This document shows positions 10,821 to 11,007 of a DNA stretch of 12,015 nucleotides, piece after piece. Within the stretch, counting starts at the first letter, position 1. Each line of letters starts with the position of its first letter. Source of the stretch: a virus. Lineage: Duplodnaviria; Heunggongvirae; Uroviricota; Caudoviricetes. The stretch is taken from the IMG/VR virus record IMGVR_UViG_2703718843_000006; one strand, given 5' to 3'. Under the pieces are notes generated by a model that saw only the letters and a list, made by a program, of their open reading frames with translations, did no database searches and was not told the origin of the DNA. Position numbers and translations under genes: made by a program.

Positions 10821-10935
10821 AATCATGTAATGTCATGAAATCAACTGAAACCATGTTCAAGGCGACAGGCCCTGATTTTGCTGGTTTTAAGGGGGGAGGT
10901 GAAGTGTGTTGAAACGTGATGAAATGAAAAGGTAT

Positions 10936-11007
10936 TGTCCCCTGCAGGAATCGAACCTGCAATTAGCCCTTAGGAGGGGCTCGTTATATCCATTTAACTA
11001 AGAGGAC
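10936..11007 (-). tRNA. argW: tRNA-Arg (anticodon CCU), argW-type
   Basis: Reverse complement of 10936-11007 reads GTCCTCTTAGTTAAATGGATATAACGAGCCCCTCCTAAGGGCTAATTGCAGGTTCGATTCCTGCAGGGGACA: 7-bp acceptor stem GTCCTCT/AGGGGAC, anticodon loop CTCCTAA, T-arm GGTTCGATTCC. The genomic sequence after discriminator A is ATACC, not CCA. Confidence 0.95.

Follow-up and report, generated by a model that had tools for sequence, protein, structure and literature searches.

Organization of the argW locus

The window, i.e. the whole stretch of 12,015 nucleotides that was analysed (IMG/VR virus record IMGVR_UViG_2703718843_000006), carries all the genes described below on its minus strand. The host gene yfdC (11083..12015), which encodes a member of the formate/nitrite transporter family (Pfam Form_Nir_trans; RefSeq annotation of identical loci), lies upstream of argW and marks the chromosomal side. 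The argW gene for tRNA-Arg(CCU) extends over 72 nt from G1 at 11007 to the discriminator A73 at 10936 (10936..11007; ARAGORN, Rfam RF00005 and identity with K-12) and has no encoded CCA. Between the tRNA and the start of the integrase gene (int) lies the P' arm of attL (10749..10935), and int starts 187 bp past argW. The product of int (9477..10748) is a P4-type tyrosine integrase of 423 aa (PHROG 1 integrase), in which all three domains of such an enzyme were recognized, namely Arm-DNA-bind_3 (PF13356, 5.7e-26), Phage_int_M (PF22022, 1.8e-22) and Phage_integrase (PF00589, 2.1e-18).

Farther from argW, Pfam and PHROGs identified an AlpA-like regulator (8105-8320), a DUF5375 protein (6524-6907), a Zn-ribbon/Toprim/DUF927 primase (3855-6527) and an Ogr/Delta protein (2421-2693), with a Psu-like protein (2693-3454; PHROG 6165, 2.6e-94) next to the latter and a variable cargo gene for a GHKL-ATPase (1-1992; Pfam, PHROGs and PADLOC) at the end of the window. 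The complete core set of a P4-like satellite (integrase, AlpA-like regulator, alpha-type primase, Psu/Sid-like protein and Delta/Ogr) is present, and the annotation of identical elements agrees. In E. coli AH21, whose junction is 100% identical to the window, the satellite measures 11.6 kb and ends just before dsdC (locus L001); attR is situated outside the window, about 630 bp beyond its start. The argW-dsdCXA region has been described as a notoriously variable locus (PMC3032704).

The cargo product is a GHKL-type ATPase of 663 aa (HATPase_c_3), part of which weakly resembles HSDR_N and for which PADLOC gave a weak match to REase_II. The slot that it occupies, between Ogr/Delta and attR, is the usual P4 defence hotspot; satellites that are otherwise near-identical have different contents there, among them genes for a DUF4062 protein together with a portal-like one. 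An open reading frame directly after int (8428-9480) belongs to no Pfam or PADLOC family and has only a weak PHROG match; its RefSeq version is shorter (324 aa), and its position is conserved across the integrase clade. Annotation of the Psu-like protein is inconsistent, as different RefSeq records name it "septation initiation protein" or "phage capsid morphogenesis protein".

According to k-mer analysis, the motif (T)GATGGTA occurs three times in the P' arm, at 10812-10818, at 10800-10806 and, inverted, at 10773-10779, and two to three copies of (T)GATGGTA(TC) are found in the P arm beside attR (two of them direct, L001 ~31638-31660). These repeats are probably arm-type binding sites of the integrase that overlap the likely int promoter region. 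The tRNA gene and int are co-oriented, and as no terminator-like site was seen between them, read-through from the tRNA into int is possible; scans for terminators and promoters around the tRNA and in the native downstream flank were uninformative. The satellite genes contain 18 AGG codons (5.8 per 1000), five of which are in int.

The 3' end of argW

argW is the sole tRNA gene in the window according to both ARAGORN and Rfam, and RF00005 aligns it over its full length (11007..10936, 63.4 bits), the ARAGORN call (10935..11008) being a one-base-shifted alternative with a U(-1):A74 pair. In minus-strand orientation, argW runs ...TTCGATTCCTGCAGGGGACA, with the discriminator A at 10936, and is followed by ATACCTTTTCATTTC. 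Positions 10935..10931 are A-T-A-C-C by direct reading, which gives AUA in place of CCA at tRNA positions 74-76; these five bases are the first that derive from the satellite, and they occupy positions 74-78, where native genes have CCA and the trailer. A preliminary description of this DNA had noted a match to argW through discriminator A followed by ATACC instead of CCA, and the coordinates it gave for this feature, 10931-10940 (GGACAATACC), are exact.

The tRNA body is 100% identical to that of K-12 argW through A73, after which K-12 continues with CCA (its gene end reads GGGGACACCA). All E. coli tRNA genes have been described as encoding CCA, with RNase Z being needed only for CCA-less precursors (PMC2241853), and the argW gene of the window departs from this canonical form, having no chromosome-encoded 3' CCA. 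The NCBI pipeline (PGAP) assigns the gene 72 nt in genomes carrying the junction versus 75 nt in K-12.

All of the 5426 complete E. coli genomes that were searched with the 401-nt junction gave a match, and most alignments, including that of K-12, ended at the discriminator (query 1-165). The full junction was matched at no less than 99% identity in 7 independent complete E. coli genomes, which come from varied countries and hosts and carry different yfdC alleles, and the same CCA-less junction was also present in Enterobacter soli and in 2 metagenome contigs. This recurrence excludes a sequencing or assembly artefact, which the preliminary description had named as one way in which its observation could fail. 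In AH21, the tRNA query gave a single match, so the gene at the junction is the only tRNA-Arg(CCU)/argW gene found there.

attR, the empty site and the segment of strand exchange

At the other end of the satellite in AH21, approximately 11.6 kb from attL, attR reads ...ACATTTTCGATTCCTGCAGGGACACCATCCTTGTG... and holds TTCGATTCCTGCAGGGACACCA, a direct repeat of the tRNA 3' end that is imperfect by one G. A synthetic empty site was constructed from the tRNA up to and including A73 and, fused to it, the attR sequence after ACA (tRNA...ACA + CCATCCTTGTG...). It has matches of 100% identity in many genomes and is covered to at least 80% in 912 of the 5426. Since this empty site is matched in real genomes, native argW encodes CCA, and the displaced CCA is retained at attR. 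The comparison with insertion-free strains, for which the preliminary description had called together with the location of attR and the empty site, thus bears out its premise that the native gene encodes CCA, and the converse, a native argW without CCA, is contradicted by both K-12 and the empty-site genomes. Its suggestion that the missing CCA marks the edge of the att core holds equally well, as the block common to attL and attR ends exactly at A73 and the native CCA lies at attR.

This common block, TTCGATTCCTGCAGGGGACA (10936..10955), comprises the T-loop, the 3' arm of the T-stem, the 3' strand of the acceptor stem and A73, and it begins exactly at the T-loop (L001, L005, L006, L007, L008, L244, L245 and L251). 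Its copy at attR is one G shorter: attR is TTCGATTCCTGCAGGG-ACACCA in every case examined, with three G's as opposed to four in the tRNA and in every attL. Such three-G attR sites are located at L001 31713-31732, L005 ~22826, L006/L007 ~23516, L244 ~27217, L251 ~20495 and L255 ~13744.

Four kinds of host right flank follow these sites, TCCTTGTG, GATACCC, TTGATACCC and TGACTATTC. The empty-site flank TCCTTGTG is found in AH21, PEC1003 and UTME-8, and GATACCC, which belongs to the csc sucrose island, in 4FM and EC1515; the two flanks mean that the satellite of lineage 1 (the E. coli lineage in which ATACC follows A73) was integrated on at least two separate occasions. The three-G attR is also present in a second E. 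coli integrase lineage (~70% nucleotide identity), in a non-E. coli contig with an 80%-identical integrase (L251, flank TTGATACCC) and in an IMG/VR contig (L255, flank TGACTATTC). As differing right flanks indicate independent integrations, the three-G version must come from the element, and the several host flanks and hosts imply, at the level of sequence, that integration has been repeated. In IntS-type elements at argW, the 16-bp repeat is perfect, with four G's in either copy, and CCA is kept (ZH063), so the three-G attR does not reflect general decay at this locus.

All attB splits that yield the observed attL and attR were enumerated for six attL/attR/attB sets from E. coli and a second host. 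Compatible breakpoints fell only within GGGACA or, for lineage 2, which by chance has a C at position 74, within GGGACAC. In the window, GGGACA (10936..10941; tRNA positions 68-73) is the only possible segment of strand exchange. With no exchange beyond position 73, the tRNA body remains that of the host, and only CCA and the trailer are replaced by satellite DNA. The "element-supplied 3' end" of the preliminary description is therefore correct for the bases after position 73 but not for the tRNA body. The element does not regenerate a complete target gene, the body being intact to A73 and CCA being replaced by AUA, and the same is true for most of the clade.

The reconstructed attP reads ...ATTTTCGATTCCTGCAGGGACA joined to ATACCTTTTC..., and its predicted core, TTCGATTCCTGCAGGGACA followed by ATACC, has three G's. 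The left half-sites of attP and attB would then be out of register by one base, which is unusual for a tyrosine recombinase. A free attP, as in an excised circle or a packaged satellite, was not found in viral contigs, phage records or plasmids; what the viral contigs did contain was an attR (L255) and a tandem hybrid junction (L256).

The integrase clade across Enterobacterales

The clade was defined as proteins at least 75% identical to the integrase of the window, the next relatives being no more than 57% identical. Its members were found at argW in Pantoea, Salmonella, Enterobacter, Leclercia and the second E. coli lineage, and all contexts retrieved adjoin a yfdC homologue and argW, with none encoding CCA. 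The bases after A73 are ATACC in E. coli lineage 1, ATACCC in the Enterobacter soli type strain (L114), ATTTTC in Pantoea, CTTTAAAG in E. coli lineage 2, CTCTGAAG in Salmonella (L249), ATCTTAAG in contigs carrying P0011, a protein named from Enterobacter soli (L250-252), and ATCTAAAG in Leclercia (L253, L254). These bases are variable, and a segment further on (TCATTTCA / CATTTCAC) is conserved; the variation looks like drift at unconstrained positions.

A sister E. coli lineage (~71% nucleotide identity, five genomes) keeps CCA, as its gene reads CCATTAAG and is annotated as 75 nt. All five copies are truncated by IS1, for which reason the attR comparison is confined to the CCA-less lineages. 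In the three copies that were retrieved (L243, L246 and L247, ~25100-33000), the interrupted element gives way to his and glycosyltransferase/glf genes that look like part of an O-antigen region, and argW must have undergone a large rearrangement in these strains.

A tandem arrangement was seen in a viral contig (L256, IMGVR_UViG_2513237354_000023, 6835-6853), where a satellite of the present family abuts an element with a 39%-identical P4-type integrase. The arm of this second element also starts without CCA (ACA followed by CTTTATTCAC), which suggests that a further argW-targeting family fails to restore CCA.

Two apparent cases of a conserved AATACC (L157 and L234) were rejected as proof: these GC-rich, non-enterobacterial contigs have no integrase, their tRNA genes are natively CCA-less, and the search pattern itself demanded ATACC. 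The pattern CCTGCAGGGN{0,1}ACAATACC, with 17 specified bases, was too short and gave mostly chance matches in genome and metagenome collections.

Frequency in E. coli and repair by IntS prophages

The lineage 1 satellite is present in 10 genomes, 7 of which have the direct CCA-less junction. For lineage 2, an initial count of 72 full-length matches was discarded as related P' arms co-align, and the junctions were recounted with a probe of 80 nt, half of it tRNA and half P' arm (40 nt each), at a coverage of at least 80%. This probe was covered in 469 genomes, but 407 of them align at only ~85% identity and were not accepted as CCA-less, as the one inspected (ZH063) carries an IntS-type element that keeps CCA. 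Removal of this band leaves ~62 direct lineage 2 junctions. A CCA-less argW is thus present in ~69 of 5426 complete E. coli genomes (~1.3%), a census that covers the probed junction types and whose counts rest on BLAST coverage thresholds.

In EC1515, EC974 and CM188746, the satellite and its right flank are as in 4FM, with a P22-like IntS/TorI prophage located between argW and the satellite. In EC1515, argW is back to 75 nt and reads GGGGACACCATTTATCAG as in K-12 (L009 38016-38090), and the hybrid junction between prophage and satellite reads gatgtCTGCAGGGGACAATACC, with ATACC staying with the satellite (L008 minus strand, ~15451). Evidently, an IntS prophage entered the CCA-less argW in this strain, and its own attP restored CCA. 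The hybrid junction places the IntS crossover within CTGCAGGGGACA and indicates that a core mismatched at its last four bases is tolerated. ETEC1720 has a like tandem for lineage 2.

Discussion

The window contains the attL of an 11.6-kb P4-like satellite in argW, the exchange in GGGACA having dropped the CCA, and, on the most likely reading, any functional tRNA from this gene would be made via a CCA-less pathway. Strand exchange by the P4-type integrase falls within the last six bp of the tRNA gene (GGGACA, positions 68-73), the satellite attP contributing, according to its reconstruction, a tRNA-like stretch with three G's, not four, and no CCA after it; integration leaves the tRNA body intact through A73 and puts satellite DNA in the place of CCA and the native trailer; and the native CCA is moved to attR on a 19-nt tRNA fragment. 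The pattern applies to an entire clade of integrases in Enterobacterales. Once RNase E has cut the AU-rich trailer of the argW precursor, RNase BN/Z and/or 3' exonucleases might remove what is left of it as far as A73, and the CCA-adding enzyme would then supply CCA. Loss of the contact between CCA and RNase P RNA may lower the efficiency of 5' processing, and 5' cleavage could become less efficient or be displaced if U(-1) pairs with A74.

E. coli matures the CCA-less tRNAs of phage T4 with RNase BN and the CCA-adding enzyme. As the argW gene at the junction is the only one for tRNA-Arg(CCU), a functional tRNA would have to mature in the way that the CCA-less tRNAs of phage T4 and Bacillus do. 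Dependence on 3' trimming and on the CCA-adding enzyme would follow if the tRNA is used. The two readings offered in the preliminary description, the edge of an att core on the one hand and dependence on processing plus CCA addition on the other, are complementary. The argU tRNA can read AGG, and argW is dispensable in principle; if maturation of the junction tRNA is poor, decoding by argU could still proceed, which would explain why the altered gene is tolerated.

Alternatively, the junction tRNA might be effectively dead, its precursor being poorly processed and degraded, with AGG being read only by the argU tRNA-Arg(UCU). The dispensability of argW would allow this, no terminator-like or defined 3' end signal was seen downstream of the tRNA, and in E. 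coli both the normal 3' maturation and the RNase P contact rely on a CCA that is present in the gene (established knowledge; PMC2241853). However, the tRNA body is intact in all carriers, the arrangement persists in ~69 genomes of several backgrounds, and there are 18 AGG codons in the element's own genes, although AGG use as such fits a working tRNA or an argU back-up equally well. The CCA-less T4 tRNAs, which nevertheless mature in this host, point in the same direction, and a dead tRNA is considered unlikely. A different origin of the junction would be an attP with four G's and an exchange further 5', e.g. in the T-loop, in which case the element would supply the 3' part of the tRNA and the G missing from attR would have been lost by secondary decay. 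The common block does start exactly at the T-loop, and many tRNA-targeting integrases reportedly cross over at the T-loop or in the 5' part of the common block (Williams 2002). Such decay, however, would have to account for the same one-G loss in every attR recovered from the clade (two E. coli lineages, one non-E. coli contig and one viral contig), in different hosts and next to four right flanks, where identical independent deletions are very unlikely, and for the four G's that the IntS-type attR keeps at the same locus; this makes such an origin of the junction highly improbable.

Could the removal of CCA be adaptive for the satellite, by throttling AGG decoding, by coupling int to read-through from the argW promoter, or by spoiling the IntS core? 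The CCA-less state is conserved across the clade in several genera, the co-oriented tRNA and int have no terminator-like site between them, and the IntS core CTGCAGGGGACACCAT is altered in both copies, attL having lost CCAT and attR a G. Yet CCA is kept in one sister lineage, the bases following A73 lack conservation in a way that looks like neutral drift, IntS phages still enter the altered site, and the satellite itself uses AGG, which argues against a design to abolish AGG decoding. An adaptive role is therefore very unlikely. It is likewise very doubtful that the att site of the clade, which is offset by one base in its reconstruction, omits CCA deliberately, such that the only tRNA-Arg(CCU) of the integrated state is conditional on RNase BN and the CCA-adding enzyme, tuning AGG decoding or read-through into int until it is reset by excision or by IntS integration. 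Finally, there is practically no chance that the CCA-less end is an artefact or a one-off, whether an error in sequencing or assembly or a mutation that altered CCA in a single strain once the satellite had integrated: nothing beyond prior possibility speaks for it, whereas the junction is identical in 7 complete genomes with different yfdC alleles, in E. soli and in metagenome contigs, and ATACC travels with the satellite in tandem arrays.

The rule that every E. coli tRNA gene encodes CCA derives from K-12, and it underlies the view that the CCA-adding enzyme serves in repair only and that chromosomal tRNAs are not among the substrates of RNase BN/Z. In approximately 1.3% of complete E. coli genomes, and in relatives from at least four other genera, the product of a chromosomal tRNA gene would depend on both enzymes, and the carriers are natural strains in which the CCA-less pathway could be tested on a host tRNA. 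With respect to recombination, the one-G marker confines the exchange of strands to positions 68-73 of the tRNA, and a register shift between attP and attB is not predicted by current models of core-site recognition. In practical terms, both argW and the island will be given a wrong size by programs for tRNA annotation or island detection that depend on CCA or on perfect repeats. A search of the literature, of incomplete coverage, for CCA-less argW or CCA-less tRNA genes created by islands found nothing relevant.

Comparison with known systems

The closest parallel at this target is the IntS/TorI module of KplE1 (CPS-53), HK620, Sf6 and P22-like phages, which, like the satellite, uses argW, has int directly downstream and exchanges strands in the 3' acceptor region; many genomes have this module at argW, also in tandem with the satellite. 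The 16-bp IntS core, CTGCAGGGGACACCAT, is a perfect repeat that includes CCA and one further base and leaves argW complete, unlike that of the satellite (PMC2951348). The satellite integrase is 31-33% identical to IntS-type integrases, and an AlpA-like regulator stands against the TorI recombination directionality factor (RDF). The element does not belong to the IntS/KplE1-type module, as its attL is without CCAT and its attR is one G short.

Phage P4 and P4-like satellites share with this element the integrase architecture, the AlpA-like regulator, the alpha-type primase, Psu/Sid-like and Delta/Ogr proteins, a variable cargo hotspot near attR and integration at a tRNA 3' end (PMC13586616). 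In contrast to P4, which uses leuX, the target here is argW, and the repeated block is imperfect (three G's versus four) and stops at the discriminator, so that the tRNA gene is not fully regenerated. The P4 core regenerates leuX including CCA.

The CCA-less tRNA genes of phage T4 and of Bacillus subtilis resemble the argW of the window in having no encoded CCA in cells with RNase BN/Z and the CCA-adding enzyme (PMC2241853; established knowledge). However, those genes are natively CCA-less and evolved with the pathway, whereas argW is converted here by a mobile element, reversibly through excision or a second integration. The islands treated by Islander and by Williams resemble the present case in that one end is marked by a restored target gene and the opposite end by a displaced 3' fragment of it (PMC4383910); the general rule is that island sequence restores the disrupted gene, and in this clade the restoration stops three bases short. 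What is known, then, is a P4-type integrase on a P4-like satellite at argW; what differs is an att site that stops at the discriminator, carries a one-base deletion and regenerates no CCA.
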